64,000 nt of DNA from Candidatus Latescibacterota bacterium (GTDB lineage: Bacteria; Latescibacterota; UBA2968; GCA-2709665): NCBI GenBank assembly GCA_965248435.1, contig OZ252100.1:4480001-4544000 (forward strand), written 5' to 3'. Made by a program: the position numbers and the translations under genes. Positions 26,355-57,189 of the stretch are shown one piece after another. The notes beneath the pieces were generated by a model. That model saw only the letters and a program-made list of their open reading frames with translations, searched no databases and was not told where the DNA came from. The stretch's first letter is position 1. Each line of letters opens with the position of its first letter.

Positions 26355-28116
26355 GTGAGCCTGATCCTCCTGATTTCTATCACGATTCGCCTCTTCGCCC
26401 TGGGCTGGTCTATCGTTCTCCTAAGGCGAATCCGGGACTGGCGAATGGGGGTCTTGAGCGTGATGCTCGCTCTGATGGCGCTGCGGCAAATCCTTACTTT
26501 GTGGGAGCACTCTCAATCAGTAACGAGTTCCGTCACAAGCCAGATCACTGAGCTTCCAGGCCTTGCCGTGAGTGTACTGGCCTTCCTGGCCGTTATCTTC
26601 GTGGAGCGCGTGATTATCGAACGCCAGCAGAAGGATACTGCGATCCAATCCATCCTGGACACCACAGTAGATGGGATCATCACCATCGATGAGCAGGGCA
26701 CGGTTGAGACTTTTAACCCCGCGGCGGAAAGGATATTTGGTTATAGGTCCGATCAGGTTATTGGGAATAACGTCAACATGCTGATGCCCGAGCCCTACCA
26801 CAGTGAACACGATGGTTATGTTACCAGCTACCTACGGACCGGTAGCGCAAAGATCATCGGCATCGGTCGCGAAGTCGTGGGCCTGCGGAAAGACAGAACC
26901 ACGTTCCCGATGGACCTGGCCGTCAGCAAGTTTCGGGTGGGCAACCGGCGAATGTTCACCGGGATCGTCCGTGACATTACAGAACGCAGGCGCACGGAGG
27001 AAGCTCTGCACGAAAGCCAGCAGTCCCTTTCGACCTTGATGAGCAACCTCCCTGGCATGGCCTACCGATGCAGGAATGACATGCATTGGACGATGGGAAT
27101 TCGTGAGCGAGGGTTGTCTTGAGCTCACTGGATACTCTCCTTCTGATTTTATGGCAAACCAGAATGTATCATATGCAGAGCTGATTCACCCGGATGATCG
27201 AGAGCCCGCTTGGGAGTCTGTTCAGGCGGCTTTACGTGAGAATAGGCCGTTTCAGATTGTCTATCGTATCAGGACTGCCCAGCCAAAGGAGAAGTGGGTA
27301 TGGGAGCAGGGCAGGGGGATGCCCGGATCAGATGGAGAGACCGTGCGGATAGAGGGGTTCATCACCGACATTTCTGAACGCAAGCGTCTGGAAGAACAGC
27401 TCAACCAATCTTCGAAGCTTGCGGCTTTAGGTGAACTCGTTGGAGGGATCGCACACGAGGTCAACAACCCTACTGGAATTATTGTGATGCGTAGTGCGGG
27501 GTTGATGAGAGAGGCAGATGCTCAGGGCTTGTCGGAGGATATCATAGATGACATTGAAGTGATTCAGAGGCAGTCTGATAAGATTGCCCAGATCACGTCA
27601 GGACTACTGGCCTTTTCGAGGCAGACACCCTTTTCACCGCTGGAAGTCGATGTCAACAAAATGGTGGCCAATGCTGCAGCCCTGGTTGAAAATGTTCTGA
27701 GGAGCAAGAATATCACCTATCTCCCTGAACTCGTCGATGGGCTGCCATTGGTGACGGCAGACACTACACGGATCGAGCAAGTGCTTGTGAATCTGTTTAA
27801 CAATTCGATGGACGCGATGCCCGATGGCGGAGAACTATGTGTGTCCACGCGGCTAGACGAGGGTACTCAGAACAGACACTACGTCCGGATTTCTGTTAAG
27901 GATACGGGTGAGGGAATCTCAGAAGAGCATCTGGCCCGACTGTTCGATCCCTTTTTTACGACCAAAGAGGTGGGAAAGGGAACCGGCCTGGGACTTGCCG
28001 TTAGCTACGGAATTGTCCAAGAGCACGGCGGCCGCTTTGAGGTGGAAAGCAAATTGGGCGAAGGCGCCGTGTTTCATATTGTTCTCCCCTTTGTTGGGAG
28101 TGATTCCAGGGATTGA
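26355..28116 (+). pseudogene. Membrane-anchored FixL-like heme-PAS/PAS histidine kinase split by a +1 frameshift near 27095 (pseudogene or sequencing error)
   Basis: LMPEPYHSEHDGY...KIIGIGREV..RKD.TTFPM FixL-type PAS; deleting one G in ATGGGAATT restores WTMEFVSEG; H-box GIAHEVNNP; N, G1, F and G2 boxes present. Confidence 0.85.
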
Positions 28117-28120
28117 TATT

Positions 28121-29512
28121 ATGAAAAAAGTGAAAATTCTGGTTGTTGACGACGAAGTGGATATGCTCAGTACATGCAAAAAATTTCTGACTCGTGCTGG
28201 CCATAAAGTCTCAGTAGCAGACCGGGGGAGTCAGGCGCTTGAGATTTTCGATCAGGAGTCCTGTGCCCTGGTGATCACAGACCTGAAGATGCCGGGGATG
28301 AACGGGATGGAGGTCCTGCGAGAGATCAAGAAGCGGCGCCCTGAGACACTTGTGATGATGTTCACCGGCTATGGGACCATTCAGGATGCAGTAATGGCGA
28401 TGAAGGAAGGAGCGTTCGATTTTATCACCAAGCCATTTACACCGGATCAGCTTACAGTTTGTGTAGATCGCGCCTTGAAGCAGCTTCGGCTGGAGGCTGA
28501 GAACAAGGCGCTTCGACAGCAGCTGGAGGAGAAGTTCAAGTTCGACAACATCCTGGGGCAAAGTTCGACAATGCAGCGAGTCTTCGATTCGATCCGGAAA
28601 ATTGCCGATACCCAGGCGAATGTGTTGATCACGGGGGAGAGCGGAACCGGCAAGGAGCTAATTGCCCGAAGCGTTCATGCCAACAGTAGCCGGAAACGGC
28701 AGCCCTTTGTGCCTCTCAACTGCGGCGGAATGCCTGAGCATTTGGTGGAAAGCGAGCTGTTCGGGCACGAGAAAGGGGCCTTTACGGGCGCCGTAGCCAG
28801 CCGGACGGGCTTGATGGAACACGCCAGCGGAGGCACCTTTTGTCTCGACGAAATCAGTGAATTGCCGCTGAACCTCCAGGTGAAGCTGCTTCGGGTGCTG
28901 GAGGAGCGCAAGATCCGCAGGGTTGGGAGCAACAAGGAGACTGAGATCGATATTCGGCTGATCTCCGCAACGAACCGAGACGTGGAGGCAATGGTGAATG
29001 AAGGCACCTTCCGCGAGGACCTCTACTATCGGGTTAATACTTTTGTGATCCACCTACCTGCATTGCGGGACCGTAGGGAGGATATTCCGCTGTTGGCCAA
29101 CCATTTTTTGCAGGAGTACCTCAAGACAACAGAGAAGGAGATTCGTGAAGTGGCCCCAGAAGCTATGGATCTCCTGTGCAAACATTCCTGGCCCGGAAAC
29201 GTCCGGGAGTTGCAGCACGTGATCGAGCGGGCTGTGGCCTTATCGTCATCCCGTCAGATCGAACCCGAAGATCTTCCCGAGGGACTTGGACATGCGAGAT
29301 CTGGAAAGATCGAGCCTGAGCAGTTCGAACTCCCATTCAAGGAGGCGAAGGAGAAGGTTATTGAAGCTTTTGAGCGGTCCTATGTTGAACAGCTTCTTTC
29401 AAAACATGGGAAAAATATCTCGCGGGCGGCGCAGCAAAGTGGCATAGACAGACGGTCATTGCACCGCCTACTGGCCAAACACGAAATTGATGCTTCGTCT
29501 TTTGACGCATAA
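28121..29512 (+). CDS. Sigma54-dependent (NtrC-family) response regulator
   Basis: Receiver VDDE..DLKMP; GESGTGKE, ESELFGHEKGAFTGA, FREDLYYR, WPGNVREL; Fis-type HTH. Confidence 0.97.
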   Translation: MKKVKILVVDDEVDMLSTCKKFLTRAGHKVSVADRGSQALEIFDQESCALVITDLKMPGMNGMEVLREIKKRRPETLVMMFTGYGTIQDAVMAMKEGAFDFITKPFTPDQLTVCVDRALKQLRLEAENKALRQQLEEKFKFDNILGQSSTMQRVFDSIRKIADTQANVLITGESGTGKELIARSVHANSSRKRQPFVPLNCGGMPEHLVESELFGHEKGAFTGAVASRTGLMEHASGGTFCLDEISELPLNLQVKLLRVLEERKIRRVGSNKETEIDIRLISATNRDVEAMVNEGTFREDLYYRVNTFVIHLPALRDRREDIPLLANHFLQEYLKTTEKEIREVAPEAMDLLCKHSWPGNVRELQHVIERAVALSSSRQIEPEDLPEGLGHARSGKIEPEQFELPFKEAKEKVIEAFERSYVEQLLSKHGKNISRAAQQSGIDRRSLHRLLAKHEIDASSFDA

Positions 29513-31643: not shown

Positions 31644-31723
31644 TCGGCTTGGCTACTCTTTGATCCCTCAAAGAAGCCATAGACGAAGAGCTGATTCCAG
31701 AAAACGAGAATCTAGATGAAATG

Positions 31724-31752
31724 AACCGTCCGAAGAGCCGGGCGGTTTTTTC
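31724..31752 (+). terminator. Intrinsic terminator
   Basis: AACCGTCC/GGGCGGTT stem followed by a T tract. Confidence 0.55.
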
Positions 31753-31773: not shown

Positions 31774-31811
31774 TGGGACGTGCGCCGACTTGGTGAGACA
31801 GTCCTGTCTCA
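31774..31811. promoter_or_regulatory. Candidate enhancer (UAS) 2
   Basis: Perfect palindrome TGAGACA-gtcc-TGTCTCA (31794-31811) plus a TGGGACG half-site 20 bp upstream. Confidence 0.75.
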
Positions 31812-31905
31812 CTTCATCGGTAAATCGTTGGGTTTTCCGAGAAAGTGTCATACATATATTGTTGTTTATCAATGTGATAGTGAAATTTGACCTGGATCAG
31901 CAAAC

Positions 31906-31920
31906 TGGCATAGACATTGC
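31906..31920 (+). promoter_or_regulatory. Sigma54 promoter 2 (porin-yceI-nxr operon)
   Basis: TGGCAT-agaca-TTGC. Confidence 0.85.
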
Positions 31921-32118
31921 GTAAAAAAGTAAGTGTGGCTGATTTACGACCAACCAATCAGAAAGTCCTATTAATACAGTTCGAGCGAAAGGGGGTTGGC
32001 GCGGATGATAGCGGTGTCTGAGGCAGGTCGCTCAGTCTTGAGAAATCCTTTTGACTCGATGGCCTGCCTGTCGAAGAAAAACCTGGCCTTCAAAGGAGGC
32101 CAAGAAGGAGGTGCCACC

Positions 32119-33465
32119 ATGAAACTCTCAAATGTAGACCATGCGAAGGCCTCAGCTGCCAGCGATCCAGGCTCGCAGATTAGGGGGCACGCCGCTCGTT
32201 GGGTCCGTCAGTTCAAAGTCGGGGTGGTTATGATGTTGATTCTCGGTCTGGGATGGTCAGGGACGCAAGCCTGGGCCCAAACCCATAATTATAAATCGGA
32301 TAAAGGCATCAAGATTTCAGAATTCGACGGAATGAAACTTTACATGGATTTAAAGACCGTCGGAAGGTTCCAGTCGTTGGACCACGAAGGGGTATTTGTT
32401 GGTGGGAAAGAAACGCTGGGACTCCCGTCCGGATTTCAGACGGCCTGGGGAAATCTGGGGTTTCTGGCGGATTATGACGGTAAGGTCGAGGTCTTCTTCG
32501 AACTCTACCTGAGCAGCCGGCCACATCCCGAAAAGGTTTATGGACACGAGGGCTATCTGCTGATCCGTGGTATACCGGAGAACCTCACCACCGGACCTGT
32601 TGCGTCCCTGTTCAATGCGGTTGATTTCAAGGCGGGTCACTTCGAGATCGATTATGGAGATCACCGCTACCGGCGATCGGACAATGCGCGGGTGCAGAAA
32701 AACCCATTGATCGGAAACTACATCATAGATCCGAAGACGGTAGAAATCGGGGTAGAAGTGGCCACGGAACCCAACCGTTTCAATCTTCTGATGGGTGTTG
32801 GGAGTGGAGGTACCACAGAGAAATTCAAGAAGGGAACAGGCCTAAGTTTTCACGGCAAGCTCTGGGGTGATATTACTAAGTCCCTTAGGGCTTCAGGGTC
32901 CTTTTACCGCGTGGATCACTCCGGAAACAAGGTCCAATTTACTGGGAGCTGGAGCAATCTCTTTTCCGGACACCGGAGTGGAGGGCCCTATAGCGGTGTT
33001 CTCGCTGGTGGAAACGCTCCTGGGCAGGTGATGCCCGGTGCTGGACAGAAGGTCACCGCAACCCAGTTTGATGTGACGTGGGGTGTGGGTTCGTTGGAGC
33101 TCTACAGCCATTACGGGTGGATGCGAGACGCTGACATCAACGGCTCGGATTCCGGGTCACCCGAGGAAAGCTGGGCATACTACGCGGCAGAATCCACTTA
33201 CCGTATTACGTCGAACCTCCATGCCGCCATCCGTTATAGCGGGGCCGACGCGAACAAACTCAACGGGATTTCCTCCAAAGGCCGCATTGAGCGGATTCAG
33301 ATTGGCGGCGGATTCTGGCTGACGGAAAACATGCTTGCCAAAGTGGAATATGTGCATCAGAGATGCAACAATTTCACGGACTCAGACGGCAAGGTCGGCG
33401 GCGTAGATATCTGGATGGATCCTGTTTTTAGCGGCGCGATCTCGGAGGTATCCTTCGCCTTCTAG
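32119..33465 (+). CDS. Outer-membrane beta-barrel (porin-like) protein
   Basis: Signal peptide (AWA/Q), amphipathic strands, C-terminal Phe; YLSSRPH, FEIDYGD..RRSDNA..NP.IGNY motifs; RBS AAGGAGG. Confidence 0.7.
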   Translation: MKLSNVDHAKASAASDPGSQIRGHAARWVRQFKVGVVMMLILGLGWSGTQAWAQTHNYKSDKGIKISEFDGMKLYMDLKTVGRFQSLDHEGVFVGGKETLGLPSGFQTAWGNLGFLADYDGKVEVFFELYLSSRPHPEKVYGHEGYLLIRGIPENLTTGPVASLFNAVDFKAGHFEIDYGDHRYRRSDNARVQKNPLIGNYIIDPKTVEIGVEVATEPNRFNLLMGVGSGGTTEKFKKGTGLSFHGKLWGDITKSLRASGSFYRVDHSGNKVQFTGSWSNLFSGHRSGGPYSGVLAGGNAPGQVMPGAGQKVTATQFDVTWGVGSLELYSHYGWMRDADINGSDSGSPEESWAYYAAESTYRITSNLHAAIRYSGADANKLNGISSKGRIERIQIGGGFWLTENMLAKVEYVHQRCNNFTDSDGKVGGVDIWMDPVFSGAISEVSFAF

Positions 33466-33576
33466 ATCTCCTTGGTCTGCGGAGTCTGTGCAGAGTTGCT
33501 GGATGCCGCAGACCACATTCGGATAGGTCTTTTCAAACCGCCTTGACGATGATGAGAAGGGCGTCATCAAAAGGAG

Positions 33577-34275
33577 ATGATCGTGATGAAAAGACACAAT
33601 GTCGAGATGGTCGGCGTATTCATTCTGCTTCTTACCCATTCCTTACAGGCACAAACCTGGATCAGGTTTGAAGGGGTACCGGAAGAAAGCAGGGTCACGA
33701 TTGAGGGGACGTCTACTCTACACGACTGGACCGTCGAAAGCGAGAGCATCAAGGGGTTCTTGGAAATCCAGAAGGATGCTGATGACGACGCACTGTGGAA
33801 AGGGGAATCTGGACCAATGCGTGTGAAGATGCGCGCTAATGTTCACGTAGAGATCGTGGTCCGTTCCCTGAAAAGCGGCAAAGGGGACATGGACAAGAAG
33901 ATGTACAAAGCCTTGAAAGATAGCGAACATCCCAAAATCGAATACCGTCTAACCGAGGCGATATGCAAGGGGAGCAAGAAGATACGAGATGCCCGATTGT
34001 CATCAGTTGAGTTTGACACCAGGGGTGAATTGACAGTGGCGGGAGTAACTCTGCCGATCGAGATGGCCGTGATAGTAGACCGTATAGGCAAAGATCAATT
34101 GATAACCAAGGGGGAGACTTTTCTGAAGATGAAGGACTTCAAGATTAAACCACCCAAGGCCATGCTGGGCATGATCCGAACAGGTAATGACATCAAAATA
34201 TCCTTTGAATGGATGACGAAGTTGCCCGTGGAAACCACACAAACGGTAGGAATATCTCAGTCGGGAGACGCATAA
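33577..34275 (+). CDS. YceI-family lipid/polyisoprenoid-binding protein
   Basis: S.VTIEGTSTLHDW, SLKSG..MD..MYKALK...P.I.Y, G.LTVAGVT, M.DF.I.PP. Confidence 0.9.
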   Translation: MIVMKRHNVEMVGVFILLLTHSLQAQTWIRFEGVPEESRVTIEGTSTLHDWTVESESIKGFLEIQKDADDDALWKGESGPMRVKMRANVHVEIVVRSLKSGKGDMDKKMYKALKDSEHPKIEYRLTEAICKGSKKIRDARLSSVEFDTRGELTVAGVTLPIEMAVIVDRIGKDQLITKGETFLKMKDFKIKPPKAMLGMIRTGNDIKISFEWMTKLPVETTQTVGISQSGDA

Positions 34276-34276
34276 A

Positions 34277-34966
34277 GTGAGAAATCCCAAACGCGTTCTG
34301 GAAGGGTTCATCATCCTGCTGGCATCTTTCCCTCTGCTGGCAATGGCATCTGAGCAAAACCTATTTGTGATTGGGTCCGATAGTGAGATGCATCTGCAAG
34401 GGCGCGCGACGCTTCGCAAATGGCGATTCGAAAGTCACGAGGTGACGGGATTTGTAAAACTCGAAGCGACTCCTGAGGATCTCAAGCTGATGATTCAAAG
34501 TGTTGAAACGGCTCTCCGAAGCGGGGTGGAAGTAATCTTGCAAGACTTGGGCCTACAGATGTGCAACTCTCCTCGGGCCTTAGTGACCGTTCCAGTGGGG
34601 TCTCTTGCGAACCGAAGTTCTGCAATGACACGAGATATGTACAAAGCCCTGAAGAAGGAGCAATTTCCAGTTATAAAGTACACATTTTCCAGATTGATAG
34701 ACGTCAGGGTGATACCGGGTGCCGATACGTCCATCACTCGTCTTAGTCTGACTACGGAGGGTGTTCTGGAGATCGCCGGGGTCCGAAAGTTCATAGAGAT
34801 GGATGTTCTGGTCGAACACGATAAGAACCGATTCAAAGTATTTGGTGAGAAACGTGTGAAGATGACTGATTTTGGAATTGATCCGCCATCACAATTCTTC
34901 GGTCTGATCCGTGTGCGCGACGAGGTGGATGTGATCTTTGACCTGGTCGTGGGGACGGATTCTTAA
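34277..34966 (+). CDS. YceI-family protein (second copy)
   Basis: MTRDMYKALK..FP.I.Y, G.LEIAGV, MTDFGIDPP..FFGLI.V. Confidence 0.85.
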   Translation: MRNPKRVLEGFIILLASFPLLAMASEQNLFVIGSDSEMHLQGRATLRKWRFESHEVTGFVKLEATPEDLKLMIQSVETALRSGVEVILQDLGLQMCNSPRALVTVPVGSLANRSSAMTRDMYKALKKEQFPVIKYTFSRLIDVRVIPGADTSITRLSLTTEGVLEIAGVRKFIEMDVLVEHDKNRFKVFGEKRVKMTDFGIDPPSQFFGLIRVRDEVDVIFDLVVGTDS

Positions 34967-34975: not shown

Positions 34976-36634
34976 ATGATGTTCCAGTGGAGGAGGGAGT
35001 CTCCAATGAGATGTGCAGTGCGTACCAGACCCGCAGGAGGAAAGTTACTTCTTTATAGCGGCATCTTACTTGGTCTGTCCCTGCTTTGTGTACAGACCTC
35101 CACCGGGGAGGGACGTTCTCTACAGCCTTCAAAGGATCTGAAAGCCTCTACTCGAGCCGTAGAATTGGGCAAGGCCACTTACCAGAGACAATGCGCTGCC
35201 TGTCACGGGCTGGAGGGGCGGGGTGACGGCGAAGCGGCCTTCCTGCTCTATCCCAAGCCCCGGGACTTCGTCGCGGCTCGCTACCGTCTCGTCTCGACGT
35301 GGGAGCGTGTGCCGACGGATGAGGACCTCTTCACCACCATCTCCCGCGGGATGCCAGGGTCGGCAATGCCGTCCTGGGCCCACCTGCCCGAGGAGACCCG
35401 ATGGGGGCTGGTTCACTATGTGAAATCTCTTGCCGAGAAGTCCTGGGCAGTGAAGCCGGCGACCGAACCAAAAGAGGAAGGTGCGTCGGGGACCGGTGTC
35501 ATCGCTGTTCCGCCCGAGACTGCTTACACGGCGGAGACGAAGAAGCAGGCCGCCTACTTTTTCAAGGAGGCCTGTGCGGGGTGCCACGGGCTGGAAGGTC
35601 GGGGCGACGGTGTGCAGCGCCAGGTGGACAGTGAAGGGTATGAAACGCGGCCGAGGGATCTGACGCGCGGGATCTACAAGGGTATCCCGGACCCGGAGGC
35701 GGTTTACCGCAGGATTGTCGCGGGGCTGCCCGGTACGCCGATGCCGATGAGCGACTGGGCCTACGGGAAAGATGCCTGGGACCTCGTCCACTACGTAATG
35801 AATATGTCCAGTGATCGGGAGCGCTCACGCAACGAAATGTTCAAGTTTGAAATCCACGCCGCGAGGGTGGCCAAACTCCCGGACCATCCCGATTCGTGGA
35901 TCTGGAATCGCGCCACGCCGGTCAACCTCCATCTGATGCCGCTCTGGTGGCGGGACGACCGGACCGAGGAGGTGACGGTGCGCGCACTGCACGACGGCAG
36001 GGAACTGGCCCTGCTCCTGGTCTGGCGGGATGAGACGCACGACCATACGACCATCCGCCCGCAGGACTTCAGAGACGCCGCTGCCGTGCAGTTCTCCCTG
36101 GATTCGGATCCACCCTTTTTCGCGATGGGGGAGCGGGGGAAGTTCGTGAACATCTGGATGTGGAAGTCTGAGCGGCAGGCGGACCTGCAGCCGGCGTATC
36201 AGGACCTGGAGAAGGTCTATCCGAATATCGGGATCGATTCCTACCCCAACTTCCAGAGGTCGCCCCTGGAACAGCCGATGCGACACGCGCTGACGCTGGA
36301 ATCGGATTCGACCTACGTGACGGGATGGGGGGCGGGAAACATCGTTTCGGACCCGACGTGGAAGCGAGCCGCGGAGGACCTCCGGGCCCAGGGCTTCGGC
36401 ACCCTGAAGGCCCGACCTCGGTTCGACCAGGCCGTGGAGGCCGATGGGGTCTACCGCGCGAACGCCTACAGGGTGGTTTTCCGCCGTGCGTTCAAACCGA
36501 AGGGGAAGGGGGCGGCGGCGCTGAAGAAGGGGACGACAGTGCCGGTGGCCTTTGCGGTTTGGGACGGGAGCGCGGGGGACCGGGACGGGAAGAAGTCGGT
36601 GACGATCTGGCAGGATTTGAAGATTTCGCCCTGA
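34976..36634 (+). CDS. Diheme cytochrome c fused to an ethylbenzene-dehydrogenase-gamma-type heme b domain (candidate NxrC/gamma subunit)
   Basis: CAACH and CAGCH with GxxMP distal ligands; FRDAAAVQF, FAMG, VAFAVWDG...RDGKK. Confidence 0.88.
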   Translation: MMFQWRRESPMRCAVRTRPAGGKLLLYSGILLGLSLLCVQTSTGEGRSLQPSKDLKASTRAVELGKATYQRQCAACHGLEGRGDGEAAFLLYPKPRDFVAARYRLVSTWERVPTDEDLFTTISRGMPGSAMPSWAHLPEETRWGLVHYVKSLAEKSWAVKPATEPKEEGASGTGVIAVPPETAYTAETKKQAAYFFKEACAGCHGLEGRGDGVQRQVDSEGYETRPRDLTRGIYKGIPDPEAVYRRIVAGLPGTPMPMSDWAYGKDAWDLVHYVMNMSSDRERSRNEMFKFEIHAARVAKLPDHPDSWIWNRATPVNLHLMPLWWRDDRTEEVTVRALHDGRELALLLVWRDETHDHTTIRPQDFRDAAAVQFSLDSDPPFFAMGERGKFVNIWMWKSERQADLQPAYQDLEKVYPNIGIDSYPNFQRSPLEQPMRHALTLESDSTYVTGWGAGNIVSDPTWKRAAEDLRAQGFGTLKARPRFDQAVEADGVYRANAYRVVFRRAFKPKGKGAAALKKGTTVPVAFAVWDGSAGDRDGKKSVTIWQDLKISP

Positions 36635-36646: not shown

Positions 36647-39600
36647 ATGGCTGATGATGCGAAGCTGGAATCGGGCGGCGTTCCAAGGCGTGAGTTCCTG
36701 CGCTGGCTGGGTCTCGGCACCGGTTCGGCCGTGATGGGCGTGGGCGTGCCGTTCAGGCTGCTGGCCGCCGCCCGTCCCGACGAAAATCCACTCGCCGGTT
36801 CCATCGACCGGGGCTGGGAAGGGATCTACCGCGATCAATACCGCTACGACCGACACTTCGACTGGGTCTGTTCGCCCAACGACACCCACGCCTGCAGGGC
36901 CCGGGCCTACGTGCGGAACGGCATCGTGACCCGACTGGGGTCCACCTACGACTATCAGGACTATGCTGATCTCTACGGCAACAAGGCCACGTCGAACTGG
37001 AACCCCAGGCAGTGCGCAAAAGGCTACACCTTTCATCGTGTGCTCTACGGGCCCTACCGGCTGCGGCACCCGATCGTGCGCAGGGGCTGGAAGGCTTGGG
37101 CCGATGCCGGGTTTCCTGATCTGACGCCTGAGCTCCGGTCGAAGTACAAGTTCGACAGCCGGGGAGAGGACGAGTTTGTTCAGATCTCCTGGGATGACGT
37201 ATCCCACGACATCGCAAAGGCGCTGGTATCAATCTCTACGCGATACAGCGGGGAGGAGGGCAAACGGCGTCTGCTGGAACAGGGCTACCAGCCCGAGATG
37301 GTGGACGCCATGCACGGGGCGGGCACACGGAGCATCAAGATGCGGGGGGGGATGGGGCTTCTGGGGGTCATCGGGAAGTACGGGATGTATCGGCTGAACA
37401 ACTCGCTGTCTCTGCTCGACTCCAGGATCCGGGGCGTGTCGCCGGACAAGGCCCTCGGGGGTCGCAACTGGTCCAACTACACGTGGCACGGAGACCAGGC
37501 CCCGGGACACCCCTGGGTGCACGGGTTGCAGACGTCTGACTGCGACTTCAACGATCTTCGCTTCTCGAAGCTGATCATCATGGATGGAAAGAACCTGGTG
37601 GAGAACAAGCTGCCTGATTCCCACTGGTTCATCGAGTGCATGGAGCGGGGGGCGAAGATCGTCGTGATTGCCCCGGAGTACGGGCCGCCTTCCACCAAGG
37701 CCGACTACTGGATCCCGATTCGTCCGGCCACGGACACGGCGCTCTGGCTGGGCATTACGAAGCTGATGATCGACCGGAAGTGGTATGACGAAGCGTTCGT
37801 GAAAGGGTTCACCGACTTTCCCCTGCTTGTGCGAACGGATACACTCAAACGCCTGAGGGCCCACGAGGTCTTCCCCGATTACAAATCGACCCTTTCGCCC
37901 GACGGGCCTTCCGTGAAGATCCAGGGCCTCAAGCCGGAACAGCACGAAAAGCTGGGGGATTATGTGATCTGGGACGAAGGCCAGGACGGTCCACGGGCCA
38001 TCACGCGAGACGAAGTCGGAAAGCGCATGGCTGAGAACGGACATCGTCCGGCGCTTTCAGGAAAGTTCAAGGTCCGGCTGGTAAACGGCGAGGAGGTCGA
38101 GGTCGGGACGCTGTGGACGCTATATCAGACGCACTTGAAAGACTACGATCTGGATACCGTGGTCGACATCACCCACACCCCGAAAGAGCTGGTGGTACAG
38201 CTTGCGAAGGACATCGCAACGATGAAACCGGTGGCCATCCACCAGGGAGAGGGGATCAATCACTGGTTCCACGCCACGGAGATGAACCGATCGGCCTACC
38301 TGCCGTTGATGCTGACCGGGAACATCGGGAAGCCGGGCGCGGGAGGCCACACTTGGGCAGGCAATTACAAGGCCGCGCTCTTCCAGGGGTCGCCCTGGAC
38401 GGGGCCCGGATTCAAGGGGTGGATCGGCGAGGATCCGTTCGAGCCGAACCTGAATCCGGATGCCCCCGGGAAAGAGGTTCCGGTGCGCCTGACCTGCAAG
38501 GATGAGGAACCGGCCTACTGGAATCACGGGGATCAGGCCCTGATCGTGGACACGCCAAAGTTCGGGCGGAAGAACTTCACCGGCAACACCCACATGCCCA
38601 CGCCGACGAAGGCCATCATCTTTAACAATGTGAACCTGATCAACAATGCCAAGTGGGCCTACGGGATGATCAAGAACGTAAACCCGAACATCGAGATGAT
38701 CGTCTCGATGGACATCCAGATGACGGCCTCGATCGAATACGCCGATATCGCCCTGCCGGCCAACTCGTGGCTCGAGTTCGAGGGACTGGAAGTCACAGCC
38801 TCCTGCTCCAACCCCTTCCTCCAGATCTGGAAGGGCGGCATCCCCCCGGTCTTCGACAGCAAGGACGACCTGAGGATCCTTGCGAACATTGCCAAGGCCC
38901 TGGGTTCAGTGACCGGCGACCGGCGCTTCATCGACTATTTCAAGTTCGAGCATCAGGGAAAGCGTGACATCTATCTGCAGCGCCTCCTCGACACCTGCAC
39001 GACCACGCGGGGATACAAACTCAGCGACATCATGACGGGCAAATTCGGGCCGCCGGGCGGCTGCTTGATGAACTTCCGAACCTACCCGCGCATCCCGTTC
39101 TACGAGCAGGTACACGACGACGAGCCCTTTCACACCGACACGGGACGGATGCACGCCTACTCCGACGTGCCAGAGGCCATCGAGTACGGAGAGAACTTCA
39201 TCGTCCACCGGGAAGGCCCGGAGGCCACGCCCTACCTGCCGAACGTGATCGTGAGTTCCAACCCCTACATCCGGCCGGAGGATTACGGCATCCCGCAGGA
39301 CGCGGAGCACTGGGACGATCGCACGATCCGAAACGTGATGCTCCCCTGGTCCAAGGTGAAGAAGACGAAGAACTTCCTATGGGAGAAAGGGTTCCAGTTC
39401 TACTGCCTGACACCGAAGACGCGCCACCGGGTGCACAGCGGCTGGTCGAACGTGGACTGGCACATGCTCTACGATTCGAACTTCGGTGACCCCTATCGGC
39501 TGGACAAGCGGGCGCCCTCAGTGGGCGAACACCAGCTCCACATCAACCCTCAGGCGGCGCGGGATCTCGAGATCAACGACGGAGATTACGTCTACCTGGA

Positions 39601-40117
39601 CGCAAACCCGGCGGACCGGCCCTACCTCGGGGCGAAGCCTGACGATCCCTTCTACCGTGTGGCGCGGTGCATGCTGCGGGTCAAGTACAACCATGCCTAC
39701 CCCTACAACATCGTGATGATGAAACACGCGCCCTATATCGCTACGGAGAAGAGCGTAAAGGCACACGAAACCCGGCCGGACGGCCGGGCGCTTTCTGCGA
39801 ATACGGGTTACCAGGCCAACCTTCGCTACGGGTCCCAGCAATCGGTCACGCGTAACTGGCATATGCCGATGCATCAGACCGACAGCCTTTTCCACAAGGC
39901 GAAGGTGTATATGAGTTTCATCTTCGGGGGCGAGGCGGATAACCACGCCATCAACACGGTGCCGAAGGAGACGCTTGTCCGCGTCACGAAAGCGGAGGAT
40001 GGAGGAATGGGGGGTGCGGGTATCTGGGCGCCGGCGACCACCGGACGTACCCCTGACAATGAGAATGAATTCACCAAGCGCTACCTGGTCGGCGAGCTGG
40101 TGCAGGTCAGGTCGTAG
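36647..40117 (+). CDS. nxrA: Tat-exported Mo-bisPGD oxidoreductase alpha subunit, Nitrospira/anammox-type NxrA-like
   Basis: Tat signal RREFL; FS0 motif CSPNDTHAC...C; WSNYTWHGDQAPG (Asp Mo ligand); WAGNYKA; NTVPKETLV. Confidence 0.92.
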   Translation: MADDAKLESGGVPRREFLRWLGLGTGSAVMGVGVPFRLLAAARPDENPLAGSIDRGWEGIYRDQYRYDRHFDWVCSPNDTHACRARAYVRNGIVTRLGSTYDYQDYADLYGNKATSNWNPRQCAKGYTFHRVLYGPYRLRHPIVRRGWKAWADAGFPDLTPELRSKYKFDSRGEDEFVQISWDDVSHDIAKALVSISTRYSGEEGKRRLLEQGYQPEMVDAMHGAGTRSIKMRGGMGLLGVIGKYGMYRLNNSLSLLDSRIRGVSPDKALGGRNWSNYTWHGDQAPGHPWVHGLQTSDCDFNDLRFSKLIIMDGKNLVENKLPDSHWFIECMERGAKIVVIAPEYGPPSTKADYWIPIRPATDTALWLGITKLMIDRKWYDEAFVKGFTDFPLLVRTDTLKRLRAHEVFPDYKSTLSPDGPSVKIQGLKPEQHEKLGDYVIWDEGQDGPRAITRDEVGKRMAENGHRPALSGKFKVRLVNGEEVEVGTLWTLYQTHLKDYDLDTVVDITHTPKELVVQLAKDIATMKPVAIHQGEGINHWFHATEMNRSAYLPLMLTGNIGKPGAGGHTWAGNYKAALFQGSPWTGPGFKGWIGEDPFEPNLNPDAPGKEVPVRLTCKDEEPAYWNHGDQALIVDTPKFGRKNFTGNTHMPTPTKAIIFNNVNLINNAKWAYGMIKNVNPNIEMIVSMDIQMTASIEYADIALPANSWLEFEGLEVTASCSNPFLQIWKGGIPPVFDSKDDLRILANIAKALGSVTGDRRFIDYFKFEHQGKRDIYLQRLLDTCTTTRGYKLSDIMTGKFGPPGGCLMNFRTYPRIPFYEQVHDDEPFHTDTGRMHAYSDVPEAIEYGENFIVHREGPEATPYLPNVIVSSNPYIRPEDYGIPQDAEHWDDRTIRNVMLPWSKVKKTKNFLWEKGFQFYCLTPKTRHRVHSGWSNVDWHMLYDSNFGDPYRLDKRAPSVGEHQLHINPQAARDLEINDGDYVYLDANPADRPYLGAKPDDPFYRVARCMLRVKYNHAYPYNIVMMKHAPYIATEKSVKAHETRPDGRALSANTGYQANLRYGSQQSVTRNWHMPMHQTDSLFHKAKVYMSFIFGGEADNHAINTVPKETLVRVTKAEDGGMGGAGIWAPATTGRTPDNENEFTKRYLVGELVQVRS

Positions 40118-40142
40118 AAGACTTCGTCTGAAGGAGCCGAAA

Positions 40143-40469
40143 ATGCCTTACGATGAACCCGATGTCACCGACCCGATGATGGGTGTGGGCGTTGTGTTGC
40201 CGGGCGGCGAGGAAGCCACGCGGGACATGGCTTACGTCTTTGCTGAGGAGTTCGCCAGGCTGGGCCATTCCGAAGAAAAGATCCTGCGTCTGTTCCAGAC
40301 ACCCTTTTACCGGGCCGCACACGGCGCCTATTCCGCACTGGGCGAGGCTGTCATCCTACGGATCGTCCGGGAATGTGTCGGCGTCTGGGGACGCGTGCGG
40401 TTCGTGGATCTGGATGCGGAAAGAGAAGCAGAGGGGCTCATTCAAGTGGAACCGTGCAGGACCGAATAG
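40143..40469 (+). CDS. Conserved-looking hypothetical protein between alpha and beta subunits
   Basis: RBS AAGGAG plus ATG; FAEEFARLG..ILRLF..PFY. Confidence 0.7.
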   Translation: MPYDEPDVTDPMMGVGVVLPGGEEATRDMAYVFAEEFARLGHSEEKILRLFQTPFYRAAHGAYSALGEAVILRIVRECVGVWGRVRFVDLDAEREAEGLIQVEPCRTE

Positions 40470-40508
40470 GGATCTCGAATCGAAACTGGCCACGAGGAGG
40501 GGAGTGCG

Positions 40509-41777
40509 ATGGCACAGGTCTACAACTGGAACCTCGGACGCAAGATGGCCTATCCGTACGAGGCCGCATATCCGAAGGAGCAGTTCGCCTTCGTGTTCAA
40601 CATCAACCGGTGTATCGCCTGCCAGACCTGCACCATGGCGTGCAAGTCGACCTGGACTTTCAACAAGGGGCAGGAACACATGTGGTGGGCGAACGTTGAG
40701 ACGAAGCCCTACGGGGGCTACCCTCAGTTCTGGGACATGAAGACCCTGCAACTGCTGGAGGAAGGTAACCCGGACGGGCAGGTCTGGGACGGGTTGACTT
40801 CAGACGACCCGAAGCGGCCCTACGGTCAATTCGAGGGCCAGACGGTCTTCGAGGCGGGAAAAAAGACGCTGAAGCCCGACAGCTCGCGCGTGCTCGGCTA
40901 TCTGCCCACGGACGAGGAGTGGAACTCTCCGAATATCTATGAGGACAACCCGGTGGGCAAAAAGGGGGTGCGGGGCGAGTTCTATCCGGACGGGGTGGAG
41001 CTGCCGGTGCACAAGACCTGGTTTTTCTACCTGGCGCGCATCTGCAATCACTGCAGCTATCCGGCCTGCTTGGCGGCCTGCCCCCGAAAGGCGATCTACA
41101 AGCGCCCCGAGGACGGGATCGTCCTGGTGGACCAGAAGGAGTGCCGGGGCTACCGGAAGTGTGTCGAGGCCTGTCCCTATAAGAAGGTGATGTATCGGGG
41201 CAATACCCGGATTTCCGAAAAGTGCATCGCCTGCTATCCCCGAGTCGAGGGTAAGGACCCGGAGACCGGAGGGGAGCCGATGGAGACGCGGTGCATGGCG
41301 GCCTGTATCGGTCAGATGCGGATGCAGGGGCTCGTGAAGATGGATCCCGAAGGGACCTGGACCCGAGATCGGCAGCATCCGCTCTATTATATGGTTCACG
41401 TCGCCAAGGTGGCCCTGCCGCTCTACCCTCAGTTCGGAACGGAGCCCAACGGCTACTACATCCCACCCCGATGGGTACGTCGCGATTACTTGCGGCAGAT
41501 GTTCGGGCCGGGCGTGGACCGGGCGATCGAGGCCTATTCCCACCCAGACCGGGAGCTCCTGGCCGTGTTGCAGCTCTTCCGGCGCTCCAACCGGATCATC
41601 TACCGGTATGAGATCGAGGAGGGCCCGTTGATCTACGAAGCGGAGCTGCGAGGACGGCCGATCACTATTTACAACGACACTGTGATCGCGTTCGGTAAGG
41701 GGGGGAAAGAGATCTTCCGGACGACGGTGGAGGAGCCCATCTACGAGCGGCCCTCCGAGCACGCGAATTCGATATAA
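40509..41777 (+). CDS. nxrB: Fe-S beta subunit, NxrB-like
   Basis: CIACQTCTMAC, CNHCSYPACLAACP, CRGYRKCVEACPY, CIAC; LPLYPQFGTEPN. Confidence 0.93.
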   Translation: MAQVYNWNLGRKMAYPYEAAYPKEQFAFVFNINRCIACQTCTMACKSTWTFNKGQEHMWWANVETKPYGGYPQFWDMKTLQLLEEGNPDGQVWDGLTSDDPKRPYGQFEGQTVFEAGKKTLKPDSSRVLGYLPTDEEWNSPNIYEDNPVGKKGVRGEFYPDGVELPVHKTWFFYLARICNHCSYPACLAACPRKAIYKRPEDGIVLVDQKECRGYRKCVEACPYKKVMYRGNTRISEKCIACYPRVEGKDPETGGEPMETRCMAACIGQMRMQGLVKMDPEGTWTRDRQHPLYYMVHVAKVALPLYPQFGTEPNGYYIPPRWVRRDYLRQMFGPGVDRAIEAYSHPDRELLAVLQLFRRSNRIIYRYEIEEGPLIYEAELRGRPITIYNDTVIAFGKGGKEIFRTTVEEPIYERPSEHANSI

Positions 41778-41789
41778 GCGGAGAGAGAG

Positions 41790-42557
41790 ATGACCGAACT
41801 GAGAATCGAAGCGGAGGAACTCGCCCTGTGCCGGGCGACCCTGTACGAGGCGCTGGCGCTGGGGTTTCGCCCCCCTACGGAGGAAACGCTGGCTCGTCTG
41901 GTGGCCGTGGAGGGGGTGAGCGCACTCGCCGATGCAGCCGCGCCGCTGGACCCCGATCTGGCTGAAACGGTCAGGAGCCTGGCCAAGGCGAATCGGACGG
42001 ACGGCACGTCGGTCCTGTCCGGGCTCTACCGAACCCTCTTCGGGCATACTGCAAGGGGCGCCGTGCCGCCTTACGAGACGGAGTACGGCGTGGATGGACT
42101 GTTCCAGCAGCCCCAGGAGATGAGCGACATCGGCGGGTTTTTCGGTGCCTTCGGTCTTGCGGTGGATCCATCGAGTCACGAACGGATCGACCACATCAGC
42201 TGCGAGTGTGAATTCCTCCGTTTTCTTTGCGAGAAGGAGGTCTACGCCGCGGAGGCGGGGGATGAGGACATGCTGGAGGAAACCCGCAAGGCGGAGCGGC
42301 TCTTCCTGAAGGATCACCTGGGTCGGCTCGCGCCCGCCTTCGGACGGCGGCTGGTGCTCGAAGACCGAGGCGGCTTCTACGGTGCGCTGGGCGAATTGTG
42401 TGCCGGCTTTATCGAGGCCGAATGCCGGCGCGCCGGTGTTTCGGCCGGACCGGAACAGCTTCAGCTTCGACCGGCCCTGCCCGACGACGTGCCCATGGCG
42501 TGCGATTCGGGTGAAGACCTCCTGCAGATCGACGGGGAGTCGGAGGAGGTTGGATGA
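41790..42557 (+). CDS. TorD/DmsD-family Mo-enzyme maturation chaperone
   Basis: PPYETEY, ERIDHISCECEF, FLKDHL. Confidence 0.9.
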   Translation: MTELRIEAEELALCRATLYEALALGFRPPTEETLARLVAVEGVSALADAAAPLDPDLAETVRSLAKANRTDGTSVLSGLYRTLFGHTARGAVPPYETEYGVDGLFQQPQEMSDIGGFFGAFGLAVDPSSHERIDHISCECEFLRFLCEKEVYAAEAGDEDMLEETRKAERLFLKDHLGRLAPAFGRRLVLEDRGGFYGALGELCAGFIEAECRRAGVSAGPEQLQLRPALPDDVPMACDSGEDLLQIDGESEEVG

Positions 42558-43516
42558 GAAGAGATCCCGAGGGATTTCGGCTGAACTTCGACCACCGCCT
42601 CGTGGAAGAATCGGTGTTGCTCGCCATCCCGGGCCGGGCCGATGAGGGCCGATTCCGAAGCGTGCGAGATCGGATTTACGACGAGCCTGACCTCGACGCG
42701 CGGGATGTGGCCTTCCAGAAGCTCCACGCCGAGTGGTTTGTGTTTCTCGGCCTGGGGGATCCCCTGGAGCAGGCTCTGGATGAGCGCTCCCTGTTGAAAG
42801 CCGCGACCCGTCAATGCGTCGTGGCCCCTGCACGGTCGAAGAAGGAGGAGGGAGCAGATCTTTTCGTGTCTCCACCCTTAGAGGGTAGGGATGAGGTGGA
42901 CAGGCGGTCGATCGGCTGCCGACTGAAGACCGAGTCGTTCCTGGAGCCTGACGCCCTGCTTGCAGTGCTTCGTCACGAGTTTCTACACATCTTCGACATG
43001 CTCGATCCGGCGTTCGACTACGAGCCGGAACTGCCCCAGTCGGAGGGAGGGGCCATGGCCAAGCGCCTCCTTCAGGATCGCTATCGGGTGCTTTGGGGTG
43101 TGACGATCGACGGACGTCTCGTGAGGGAAGGTCGGGCATTGGCCGGAGTGCGTGGACGCAGAGAACACGAATTTTTCCGGACCTTTCATTTTCTAGGCGC
43201 GAACACCCAAGACGCCTTCAGCAGGTTCTTCGACCACCCCTTCCGCACCCACGGCGAACTGGTCGCCTTTGCGCAAGCTCCCCATTTGGCCTTTGGCGAC
43301 TCATCCCGTCCTGATATGCGCTGTCCTTTATGCGGTTTCCCCACGCACGCCTTTGAGCCGAACCCACAACGGATCCCTGCCGAGGTGCTTACCCGGATCG
43401 CGAGTGATTTTCCGACCTGGCGCCCTGCGCAGGGACTCTGCCCGCAGTGTGCCGATCTCTATCGGGCCTCCCCGCTCTCCAGCGCGGCAGAGGCCGTCCT
43501 TCCGAAGATTTCATGA
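42554..43516 (+). CDS. Hypothetical protein with HExxH motif and C-terminal CxxC...CxxC zinc ribbon
   Basis: LRHEFLH; CPLC and CPQC; start overlaps the chaperone stop. Confidence 0.7.
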   Translation: MRRDPEGFRLNFDHRLVEESVLLAIPGRADEGRFRSVRDRIYDEPDLDARDVAFQKLHAEWFVFLGLGDPLEQALDERSLLKAATRQCVVAPARSKKEEGADLFVSPPLEGRDEVDRRSIGCRLKTESFLEPDALLAVLRHEFLHIFDMLDPAFDYEPELPQSEGGAMAKRLLQDRYRVLWGVTIDGRLVREGRALAGVRGRREHEFFRTFHFLGANTQDAFSRFFDHPFRTHGELVAFAQAPHLAFGDSSRPDMRCPLCGFPTHAFEPNPQRIPAEVLTRIASDFPTWRPAQGLCPQCADLYRASPLSSAAEAVLPKIS

Positions 43517-43940
43517 GTTCTATGACCTCCCGAGAACGAATTCAGAGGGTGTTGGCAGCGAGGTGCCCGACCGTGTGCCGTTTCACGACGCCTACTGGGC
43601 GACGACGATCGAGCGGTGGCGTCGCGAAGGCATGCCGCCAGACAGATCTCCTGAAGAATACTTCGGGAGTGAAATCGTGCAGATCGCGGGCGACTATTCG
43701 CTGCAAGTTCCATTTCAGATGATCGAGGAGACGGATCGATATCGCGTCGGGAATATCGATGTTCGAAACCTGGCTGGAAGCCGTGAGGCGATCGAATCGG
43801 AGATCCGGTCGAAGGTGACCGCGGGGGGAGCTGGGGGCGGATACATCTATCATTCAGATCACTCCGTCCCCAAAGATGTGTCGTTGGAGAACTATCGATT
43901 CGCGCTGAAGATGCTCGAGAAGTACGGGCGTTACGATTGA
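43513..43940 (+). pseudogene. Uroporphyrinogen-decarboxylase-family (MtaA/CmuA-like) remnant with frameshift and large internal deletion
   Basis: MTSRERI..(shift)..EVPDRVP N-terminus joined directly to the GNID...GGGYIYHSDHSVP C-terminus; ~140 aa against ~350 expected. Confidence 0.75.
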
Positions 43941-43957
43941 GGCGTGAGGAGGACCGT

Positions 43958-44599
43958 ATGGACGACGTCGAGCGCTGTACTTGCGCAGACGAGGGCCCGC
44001 CCGTTATCGCGGTCACAGGCTACCGGGACAGCGGAAAGACGACCGCTATCGAGGCGATCGTAAAGGCGTGTTCTCTCCGGGGCACCCGTGTAGGGGTCTT
44101 CAAGCATTGCTGCCACGGCTACGATCTGGACCAACCCGGGAAGGACTCCTGGCGTATCCATCAGGCAGGCGCGGCCGGGACCGTCGTGATGGGCCCCAAG
44201 GGATTCGCGTTCCTCGGGGGATCCTGCCCTGACCAGGATCCACGGCGACTTGCGTCCTGGCTGTTCCCGAACGTGGACTTGATCCTTGCCGAGGGGTTTC
44301 ACTGGATCGGCCTTCCCCGGATCGAGATTGGAGATCGCGATGGAAGGACCCGCCCGGGGCATCCGGAAGGGGAGGTGCTGGGCCGTCTGCCTTTTAAGTT
44401 CGGTTCGAGGGAGATCCGGGCGGTCTGCGATCTGCTCGAGGCGAGATACGTGGAGGGGCGACGTGAACGAGAGGTCGCCCGAAGGGCGATTCTATCCTCA
44501 GCTCAAACTTCGTCGGATATCCGTCGAGGGGACATCTTCGGCAGGAGGACGACTCCCCACGCGATTACTCCGATCAGCCAGAACGCTGCTCCGATGTGA
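43958..44599 (+). CDS. mobB: Molybdopterin-guanine dinucleotide biosynthesis protein B
   Basis: GYRDSGKTT, KH..H..D.DQPGKDSW, DLILAEGF. Confidence 0.9.
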   Translation: MDDVERCTCADEGPPVIAVTGYRDSGKTTAIEAIVKACSLRGTRVGVFKHCCHGYDLDQPGKDSWRIHQAGAAGTVVMGPKGFAFLGGSCPDQDPRRLASWLFPNVDLILAEGFHWIGLPRIEIGDRDGRTRPGHPEGEVLGRLPFKFGSREIRAVCDLLEARYVEGRREREVARRAILSSAQTSSDIRRGDIFGRRTTPHAITPISQNAAPM

Positions 44600-45666: not shown

Positions 45667-45823
45667 GTGCGCTCCGAATGGCGAGGGATTTGAAGGTGCT
45701 GATGTGTCAAGATAACCGTTCCGGCGGTCCGCGGACAAGCGTTTGGGCCGACCAGCGGGTGGACAGACGACTGGGATTTGCCACAGGCAAATCAACCCGT
45801 TCCCTGGAAAGGGAGATTAGACC

Positions 45824-45955: not shown

Positions 45956-45970
45956 TGGCACGTCATTTGT
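45956..45970 (+). promoter_or_regulatory. Sigma54 promoter 3
   Basis: TGGCAC-gtcat-TTGT (one mismatch at -12), preceded by an AT-rich tract. Confidence 0.65.
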
Positions 45971-46041
45971 AAGGTGTTCATTAGATGGGTTTCGAATTGG
46001 GGGGGGTCCGGGTCTTCAAGGCGCAAAACGAAGGAGATTCT

Positions 46042-55487: not shown

Positions 55488-55509
55488 TCGACAGAAAGAG
55501 GCCGGTTTC

Positions 55510-56904: not shown

Positions 56905-56947
56905 CCAGCGATGCCTGCCGGGCATCAGCATTAGCGAATCTCGCTAG

Positions 56948-57075: not shown

Positions 57076-57092
57076 AGATGGTCATGAGCCCG

Positions 57093-57118: not shown

Positions 57119-57189
57119 TTAGGCCTGATTACGTGAATTGAGCGACCGCTGGGGTCGAACGTGTCAAGAGAAGGCCAGGGGATTTGATT

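Follow-up and report, generated by a model that had tools for sequence, protein, structure and literature searches.

Two known superfamilies lie closest to the system described here: the 16-stranded porins of the outer membrane and the secreted or periplasmic lipocalins of the YceI family. OmpC/OmpF, MlaA and MlaC make up a porin-associated lipid shuttle, and NosA and OprC are anaerobically induced copper channels said to serve the copper supply of N2O reductase. In E. coli, yceI shares an operon with a cytochrome b561 gene, another case of a YceI protein encoded with a redox partner, and Burkholderia BcnA and BcnB capture antibiotics. Solved structures of the YceI family include TT1927b (1wub), E. 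coli YceI (1y0g), BcnA/BcnB (5ixh/5ixg), HP1286 (3hpe) and Saccharophagus X158 (2x34), the last entry being titled a polyisoprenoid-binding domain in the PDB. Ubiquinone-8 is reported from one X158 structure, and Cellvibrio Cbp2D joins a domain of this type to cytochrome c domains (PMC8981238); a Marinobacter YceI is reported to confer tolerance to monoterpenes (pinene) (PMC4596283). The X158 domains of Cbp2D/Cbp2E are thereby YceI-like domains linked to redox partners. Here, we describe a three-gene cassette, an outer-membrane barrel followed by two YceI genes (32119–34966, + strand), in a 64,000-nucleotide stretch of a Candidatus Latescibacterota genome (GCA_965248435.1, contig OZ252100.1, positions 4,480,001–4,544,000; hereafter the window), where it stands directly ahead of genes for a nitrite/nitrate oxidoreductase (NXR)-like enzyme.

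As judged from sequence, the barrel gene and the YceI pair form a cassette of the outer envelope that is autonomous and conserved in many lineages; gene order kept across phyla, together with two natural gene fusions, shows a porin-type channel and periplasmic YceI lipocalins to be functionally bound together. To the lipid shuttle, an outer-membrane channel with a periplasmic carrier, and to the NosA/OprC copper channels the cassette offers a functional analogy only; it has no homology to MlaA/MlaC or to TonB-dependent receptors. Both YceI proteins of the window share PF04264 and the secreted or periplasmic location with the YceI family, but they represent two paralogous types tied to a porin and sometimes fused to a porin or to DUF3347. 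Unlike in Cbp2D/Cbp2E, the conserved partner is a porin and not a cytochrome, a cytochrome/NXR neighbour being found only in this genome among the loci examined. The component superfamilies are known; the fixed pairing of a porin with two YceI types, the fusions and the DosS-like or sigma54 control were not found in the mainly non-subscription literature that was searched.

The cassette and its conservation

The barrel gene (32119–33465, + strand) encodes 448 residues, beginning at an ATG with GGAGG ahead of it, with an N-terminal hydrophobic, signal-like segment and a C-terminus ending in SFAF. Its AlphaFold (AF2) model (predicted local distance difference test, pLDDT, 89.4; predicted template-modelling score, pTM, 0.84) contains 16 antiparallel strands by DSSP, short periplasmic turns save one of 19 residues, long extracellular loops, a 32-residue L3-like loop between strands 5 and 6, and an aromatic C-terminal residue (Phe). 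The model therefore has the structural features of a porin, and it shares the 16 strands, the L3-like loop and the C-terminal aromatic residue with OmpF/OmpC, Neisseria PorB and Pseudomonas OprP/OprO. The best Foldseek matches were OmpF, OprP, PorB and OprO (E 1e-13 to 1e-11), OprP and OprO taking ranks 2 and 12. We take the modelled barrel to be a hydrophilic porin-type channel and not a lipid channel of the FadL/OmpW type.

At the sequence level, the barrel differs from solved porins in having no match among PDB sequences, either as a single sequence or as a 62-sequence profile. It belongs to no Pfam family, the curated porin families Porin_4 and Porin_O_P included, and its NCBIfam match to porin OmpF is far below threshold (E 0.0052, 16.1 bits against a cut-off of 583). 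Among the 62 relatives, 5 weakly match Porin_O_P (best 5e-4) and 4 match Porin_4; the closest named Atlas clusters are called 'phosphate-selective porin O and P'. The family is large, with 650 representative clusters at E ≤ 1e-3 and 169 at E ≤ 1e-30 among 1.84 billion representatives. Relatives from different phyla are 45–50% identical, and conservation peaks in the loop that joins strands 5 and 6 (FEIDYGD..YRRS.NA.VQ.NPLIGN), the L3 region being nearly invariant. Such strongly conserved loops, unlike those of the fast-evolving general porins, suggest a specific substrate or partner. By a strand-periodicity analysis, which is a rough proxy, the conserved charged positions are net acidic (13 acidic versus 8 basic), in contrast to OprP, and give no sign of an OprP-like Arg/Lys ladder.

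YceI1 (33577–34275, + strand; PF04264 2.7e-12, 47.7 bits) and YceI2 (34277–34966, + strand; 9.1e-9, 36.3 bits) both exceed the PF04264 gathering cut-off of 23.7 bits, with partial matches that cover profile positions 44–147 only. Read by eye, each N-terminus carries a signal-peptide-like segment ending in A-x-A. The AF2 model of YceI1 (pLDDT 87) has the eight-strand, lipocalin-like barrel fold of the family: its top 12 Foldseek matches are all YceI-family structures (E ~1e-9, target-normalised TM 0.70–0.81), among them TT1927b, E. coli YceI, BcnA/BcnB, PA0423, X158 and HP1286. Neither paralogue keeps the canonical RDxHL and LKDF motifs, in place of which stand (K)M-D-K-x-M / M-[DE]-x-x-M and M-(T/K)-D-F; YceI1 carries GTSxxHxW, MDKxM and MxDF. 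An alignment of YceI1-type proteins shows G44, S46 and H49 to be invariant and W51, M105 and M185 to be near-invariant, while YceI2-type orthologues usually carry a Cys pair, both members of which are absent from the YceI2 of the window. Haem binding was weighed on account of the invariant His of YceI1 and dropped, since YceI2 lacks that residue. The genome also encodes a separate YceI, its only canonical one (181.5 bits, full-length match; L115, G000:C1:76741-80232), which stands between a TamB-family gene, directly ahead of it, and a small mechanosensitive-channel-like gene.

Conservation of the cassette was examined in a scan of one genome per species, which returned 71 loci; in 66 of them a barrel open reading frame (ORF) was found by ORF calling and phmmer. 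ORFs were called by a simple longest-ORF rule, which leaves some spurious or over-long frames in high-GC loci. At least one YceI ORF lies beside the barrel in 61/66 loci and two or more in 49/66, while the exact order barrel–YceI1–YceI2 on one strand is kept in 33; these counts overstate independence, since many loci, especially those of Thermoanaerobaculia, are kin. Other arrangements recur by lineage: the YceI1–YceI2 pair is divergent and upstream of the barrel in Ignavibacteriota/Bacteroidota, and the order YceI1–barrel–YceI2 is found in Gemmatimonadota, Bacteroidales and Rapidithrix, the last including a cultured carrier, Rapidithrix thailandica JCM 23209 (L060). By record titles, carriers belong to Acidobacteriota, Planctomycetota, Omnitrophota, Gemmatimonadota, Bacteroidota/Ignavibacteriota and others. 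Of the five barrel loci without a YceI ORF, three have short flanks, L005 and L028 (each about 550 bp downstream) and L016 (662 bp upstream, 1305 bp downstream); the others are L039, whose barrel begins at a contig end, and L072. In the last of these, from a Thermoanaerobaculia metagenome-assembled genome, the cassette is present as a rearranged or decayed copy: a single ORF (7974–8855) has matches to a YceI2-type protein as well as to the N-terminal third of the barrel. Where the flanks are long enough, metagenome barrels only 27–31% identical to that of the window are mostly accompanied by YceI genes as well; a single-protein metagenome scan with the barrel returned only distant relatives (27–44% identity) and none of the 58–71% relatives. 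The first-pass annotation of the window, made from its letters alone, had called the module, a barrel with YceI proteins, an uncharacterised system, and that part of its reading is supported.

A barrel-profile search of representatives also retrieved two natural fusions of a YceI protein with the barrel, P0256 (670 aa) and P0306 (726 aa). In each, a single signal peptide is followed by a YceI domain, a low-complexity linker and a barrel without a signal peptide of its own. The N-terminus of a porin is periplasmic, which places the YceI domain of both fusions at the periplasmic mouth of the pore; the two architectures argue for physical coupling of YceI and barrel. The search for relatives of YceI1 yielded no longer fused forms of that protein at or above 407 aa.

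Regulators and neighbouring genes

On the + strand, the locus of the window runs from a PAS histidine kinase, an NtrC-type activator, a HATPase_c_2 protein and a PilZ-like protein through the barrel, YceI1 and YceI2 to a cytochrome c/EB_dh gene, the NXR-like alpha, beta and delta genes, a 320-aa protein and MobB. The candidate sensor is the PAS–HisKA–HATPase kinase (27076–28116, + strand; Pfam PAS_3, HisKA, HATPase_c), which is followed by the sigma54 activator with REC, AAA+ and Fis-type helix-turn-helix domains (27908–29512, + strand; Sigma54_activat 8.2e-72, Response_reg, HTH_8); the latter coordinates are those of the longest ORF, and the real start is probably later. A PAS-only ORF (26355–27122, + strand) overlaps the start of the kinase ORF in another frame, as two genes or one frameshifted kinase. 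The 359-aa protein upstream of the barrel matches PilZ weakly and is closed by a terminator-like hairpin with a T-run (31723–31748, + strand), an arrangement repeated after the PilZ-like gene of G083, a genome of the same order.

Between this hairpin and the barrel lies a sigma54-type promoter, TGGCATAGACATTGCG (31906–31921, + strand; TGGCAT-N5-TTGC, one mismatch to TGGCAY-N5-TTGCW). The window holds 3 sigma54 motifs against 2.66 expected, a number not above chance, and the promoter is supported by its position and its conservation in relatives instead. About 95 nucleotides 5' of it stands a perfect 9+9 inverted repeat, GTGAGACAG-N2-CTGTCTCAC (31793–31812), read from the sequence; its half-sites GTGAGACA and TGTCTCAC recur with different spacing 5' of the barrel promoter of G083 (L103, ~990–1035), and the repeat is a candidate activator-binding site. 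Downstream, the genes are closely packed, with 111 bp between the barrel and YceI1, 1 bp between YceI1 and YceI2 and 9 bp between YceI2 and the cytochrome gene. None of the gaps from the barrel to the cytochrome gene holds a terminator-like site, the two listed on the + strand lying upstream of the barrel and just inside YceI1. The layout as first annotated, with the barrel and two signal-peptide YceI genes leading after a sigma54-type promoter and 9 bp from the cytochrome gene, agrees with these ORFs.

Other genomes place different regulators beside the cassette. In 26 loci, mostly of Thermoanaerobaculia, YceI2 is followed on the same strand by a kinase and a NarL/LuxR-type response regulator. 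For one of these kinases, that of L010, the GAF domain matches the solved structures of DosT (2vzw, E 5.7e-36) and DevS (2w3d, E 2.5e-33), with about 50% identity to the haem-binding GAF-A domain. Among 27 strong kinase homologues, the motif GFPxxHPxM...LLAVP is kept in 27/27 and GNLYL in 22/27; from the DevS/DosT literature, we take these to hold the haem-ligating His and the distal Tyr. By GAF-A homology and these motifs, the neighbouring kinases in other genomes are DosS/DosT-like. They resemble the Mycobacterium DosS/DosT–DosR system, a two-component system for hypoxia, NO and CO, in the haem-GAF motifs, the HisKA_3 domain and the NarL/LuxR-type partner, but they have one GAF domain instead of two, occur in diderm phyla and, judging by gene position, would control an outer-membrane cassette. 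The window has no DosS-like system and carries the PAS kinase and NtrC-type activator instead.

A full NtrC-type sigma54 activator with a PAS kinase stands beside the cassette in 11 genome loci, and also in G105. In the latter (L104, G105:C1:2438000-2457000), the cassette lies behind an operon for a CoxMSL-like molybdenum hydroxylase, both on the same strand, with a PAS-PAS-HK-REC kinase and the sigma54 activator coming next. Intergenic regions of Ignavibacteriota/Bacteroidota share TTGGCAC-N5-TTG about 90 bp before the barrel ATG, together with repeated TGCA-N4-TGCA elements and a mirror-image promoter for the YceI genes. The strict sigma54 pattern ending in TTGC[AT] was found in only 1/66 loci; it was relaxed because Ignavibacteriota promoters end in TTGG or TTGA. 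In the relaxed form, TGGCA[CT]-N5-TTG lies just upstream of the barrel in 14/88 loci, at 0.225 sites/kb versus 0.010/kb overall, or 22 times background. Domain and motif content thus shows the regulators of the cassette to be of O2-, NO-, CO- or redox-sensing kinds. The suggestion in the first-pass annotation that a barrel and YceI pair occurs in low-oxygen loci of Bacteroidota was borne out to the extent that the pair is present in Bacteroidota/Ignavibacteriota and that regulators elsewhere are of O2/NO/redox-sensing types.

Within 8 kb, periplasmic N-oxide genes were found at about 11 roughly independent loci of 97; we would expect them in about 1% of random 16-kb windows. NrfH–NrfA start 81 bp after YceI2 in L004 (L078 is apparently the same organism) and lie 3 kb upstream in L002, an NrfA fragment is present in L026, and NrfH follows the cassette of G083 at 2.7 kb. 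NirK stands directly downstream in L009 (TIGR02376, 301.7 bits versus a cut-off of 296.3), and a NirK-like two-domain copper protein (194.8 bits, below cut-off) precedes the barrel in L082/L083. NosZ-like and NosL genes follow the barrel directly in L097, whereas in L046 NosZ is 5 kb downstream and a CopA-like multicopper oxidase upstream. A RIC/ScdA-hemerythrin gene comes after the regulator in L010 and L014, and the window itself has NXR and NnrS next to the cassette. It had been proposed that the module would be found with respiratory genes in other genomes, and the neighbourhood check did find such an association, by virtue of these ~11 loci.

Further recurrent neighbours are fatty-acid desaturases (5 loci) and hemerythrin-GGDEF proteins. 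Crp/cNMP-binding queries gave matches in 15 loci; two of these proteins were scanned with Pfam and proved to be a Crp-type protein and a combination of cNMP_binding with DUF1003. Homologues of the window's NXR gamma, alpha, beta or delta proteins were found within 8 kb in 0/66 other genome loci with a barrel ORF (phmmer E ≤ 1e-3), and the NXR block of G038, another genome of the same order, stands without a barrel. An association of the cassette with NXR is therefore not conserved in other genomes.

The junction with the NXR block

The NXR block of the window begins with a gamma-type subunit (34976–36634, + strand), in which two cytochrome c domains are fused to an EB_dh haem-b domain. It continues with the NXR-like alpha subunit (1156 aa, type II DMSO-reductase family), the 4Fe-4S beta subunit, the delta chaperone, the 320-aa protein and MobB (36647–44599, + strand), and ends with NnrS, of a haem/copper membrane protein family of NO stress, on the opposite strand (44503–45795, − strand; PF05940 2.1e-31). 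A search of 40 close relatives, drawn from the same genus, family or order, did not find the barrel, which was found in only 5/167 other genomes of the phylum.

The two genomes named above hold the two halves of the locus separately. In G083, whose barrel is 68% identical, the order is PilZ-like gene, terminator, the sigma54-type promoter TGGCACaaccgTTGC, barrel, YceI1, a TonB_C protein, sigma70 and NrfH, with no NXR; its sigma70 is homologous to that of the window at 47377–48267 (E 6.6e-73). In G038, the sigma54-type promoter TGGCATccagaTTGC precedes the cytochrome gene, followed by alpha, beta, delta and MobB, with NnrS on the opposite strand and then a histidine kinase, an NtrC-type activator and a PilZ-like gene, with no barrel. 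The G038 proteins beside the NXR block match those of the window closely (E 1.2e-97 for the kinase, 4.6e-199 for the activator and 6.8e-113 for NnrS). Its NXR-like alpha gene (L077, 9791–13313) is in four ORF pieces, through either pseudogene formation or assembly indels.

GC content at third codon positions (GC3) divides the locus at the same place. It is 0.54–0.63 from the kinase and NtrC genes through the PilZ-like gene and barrel to YceI2, 0.69–0.83 from the cytochrome gene to NnrS and 0.58–0.62 thereafter, with the jump falling exactly at the 9-bp junction (YceI2 0.54, cytochrome gene 0.77). The G083 block is uniformly low (0.52–0.60) and the G038 block uniformly high (0.68–0.76). Codon-composition boundaries at 34976 and ~45800 enclose a block of ~10.8 kb, and the simplest reading of composition and synteny is that a G038-like NXR–NnrS block was inserted behind YceI2 of a G083-like cassette locus. 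Lying directly behind YceI2, the NXR genes are now probably read from the sigma54 promoter of the cassette, and because a histidine kinase/NtrC pair of the same type stands beside both units in relatives, cassette and NXR probably answer the same signal. A search for sequencing runs listed four that contain the stretch, all from one study, and no RNA run. Here, a set of respiratory enzyme genes has apparently come under a regulated promoter that was already in place, and the locus illustrates such a capture clearly.

Proposed function and competing explanations

Given its own switch and its recurrent placement beside periplasmic N-oxide enzymes, the cassette is most likely, with somewhat better than even confidence on our part, an outer-membrane ligand relay switched on for low-oxygen/N-oxide life. 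In such a relay, a 16-strand substrate-type porin would work with one or two divergent YceI lipocalins acting physically at its periplasmic side, and a small ligand would pass from the pore to the binding protein or in reverse. Its own switch is normally a sigma54 activator paired with a PAS kinase or, alternatively, a haem-GAF kinase of the DosS/DosT type paired with a NarL-type regulator; the inducing signal would be low oxygen or N-oxide respiration. The ligand may be an isoprenoid or quinone-like lipid, by family precedent, or a soft metal such as copper.

Several points weigh against this reading. In about 85 of the 97 loci, the 8-kb neighbourhood contains no N-oxide enzyme; kinship among many Thermoanaerobaculia loci makes the counts non-independent; and P0256 and P0306 each form a single-member sequence cluster. 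For the locus of the window, the direction of rearrangement (NXR in, or cassette in) is read from composition and G083 synteny only, and the regulators also stand beside NXR in G038. Codon bias linked to expression, and not foreign origin, could account in part for the high GC3 of the NXR genes.

The explanation offered in the first-pass annotation was that the YceI pair carries a quinone or isoprenoid and so links the NXR-like enzyme to the membrane quinone pool, with the barrel importing or exchanging lipid. The polyisoprenoid-binding-protein fold of the YceI1 model (1wub, 2x34), the ubiquinone-8 in X158 with its Cbp2D fusions to cytochrome c domains, and the leading position of the module in the operon speak for it. 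This part of the earlier proposal found no support: none of the 66 other barrel loci carries NXR-type genes, the partner enzymes are diverse, the NXR block is apparently inserted, the barrel is of a hydrophilic porin type and not a lipid channel, and the canonical RDxHL motif is replaced. NrfHA partners have a NapC/NirT-type subunit of their own, NrfH, which is a quinol dehydrogenase, and most loci have no redox enzyme at all. Moreover, the gamma subunit already contains two cytochrome c domains, through which NXR could reach the cytochrome c pool in the usual way. We see no support for the cassette as a quinone link dedicated to NXR, and we regard such a link to the quinone pool as very unlikely. 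An OprP/OprO-like specific porin admitting nitrite or nitrate to periplasmic N-oxide enzymes, with YceI as an accessory, seems more improbable still. Fold comparison ranks OprP and OprO high, the names of the closest Atlas clusters and the weak Porin_O_P matches of 5/62 relatives point the same way, and the cassette adjoins NXR, NrfHA and NirK, all of which handle nitrite. Such a channel would leave the obligatory YceI partners and the fusions unexplained, however, and NosZ neighbours use a gas; given the net acidic charge count, with no sign of an Arg/Lys ladder by the same rough proxy, it is kept as a weak rival only. Generic envelope-stress protection, in which a stress-induced porin and its lipocalins sequester toxic lipophilic compounds with no specific tie to respiration, would suit the antibiotic-capturing BcnA/BcnB and a Pseudomonas 'antibiotic sequester' among the top YceI1 fold matches, the Marinobacter tolerance phenotype and the many loci without a respiratory enzyme nearby. 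We consider it distinctly improbable, as the cross-phylum conservation of the porin loops, together with regulators of its own, of haem-GAF or sigma54 type, indicates a specific signal and substrate; the recurrent N-oxide genes nearby would also go unexplained.

A soft-metal relay is also unlikely in our estimation. Here, the porin would be a cation channel and the Met-rich YceI proteins periplasmic metal partners that supply or buffer copper when copper-dependent low-oxygen/N-oxide enzymes (NirK, NosZ, NnrS, cbb3-type oxidases) are made, an arrangement that would be akin to NosA/OprC. Both paralogues carry the Met motifs M-[DE]-x-x-M and M-[TK]-D-F, YceI1 adds the invariant H49 and near-invariant W51, and the acidic excess among the conserved barrel charges, rough as that proxy is, would suit a cation. 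Copper-related neighbours comprise NirK, NosZ with NosL, the CopA-like multicopper oxidase (L046), a plastocyanin-type protein (L088), an HMA P-type ATPase (L060) and ArsR regulators. In four loci (L003, L045, L037, L040), YceI1 is fused to DUF3347 (PF11827), which is probably a periplasmic metal-binding domain by sequence, and for which no relevant paper was found in the literature searched. Five further DUF3347 copies, of which four were scanned with Pfam and all five aligned, share C-x-M...NPY...M..C (5/5), and two of them are C-terminal domains of CusB-type adaptors (HMBD + HlyD_D23). Against copper stand the confinement of the DUF3347 fusions to Planctomycetota-type loci, 2/4 of them without the Cys pair, the DosS-type and PAS regulators, which are not metal sensors, the fact that NXR and NrfA need no copper, and the ability of Met-lined pockets to bind lipids as well. 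DUF3347 was not found in the window's own genome. In its most developed form, this explanation sees a repurposed YceI fold, with Met/His-lined lipocalins under or fused to an acidic porin as a hypoxia/NO-switched, TonB-independent copper or soft-metal relay that feeds or buffers periplasmic N-oxide and high-affinity respiratory enzymes. Though we hold that full scheme to be quite unlikely, it would, if true, represent an undescribed class of outer-membrane metal supply across many non-model phyla.

For the ligand relay that we favour, identification of the ligand would tell what a family of at least 650 sequence clusters does and could reveal how diderm bacteria equip the outer envelope for low-oxygen respiration. 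Carriers include many uncultured lineages important for nitrogen cycling in soils and sediments, with the cassette repeatedly beside enzymes of nitrite, NO and N2O.

Several minor features were noted in the course of the analysis. The further DUF3347 copies lie at L108:154-1926, L110:1279-2685, L112, L114 and L017:13371-13781, one stand-alone copy having a His-rich stretch. In the window, a perfect sigma54-type match, TGGCATCCATATTGCT (14883–14898, − strand), stands ~890 bp 5' of a PorV-like gene (12861–13997, − strand), and a sigma54-type motif, TGGCACGTCATTTGTA (45956–45971, + strand), lies upstream of a gene at 46212 for a 193-aa unknown protein. Spurious + strand ORFs (e.g., 45116–45508) overlap the minus-strand NnrS gene. 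About 19 kb 3' of the cassette, a CusC/CusB/CusA-like RND efflux operon (54174–60447, + strand) encodes an adaptor with two HMBD heavy-metal-binding domains.

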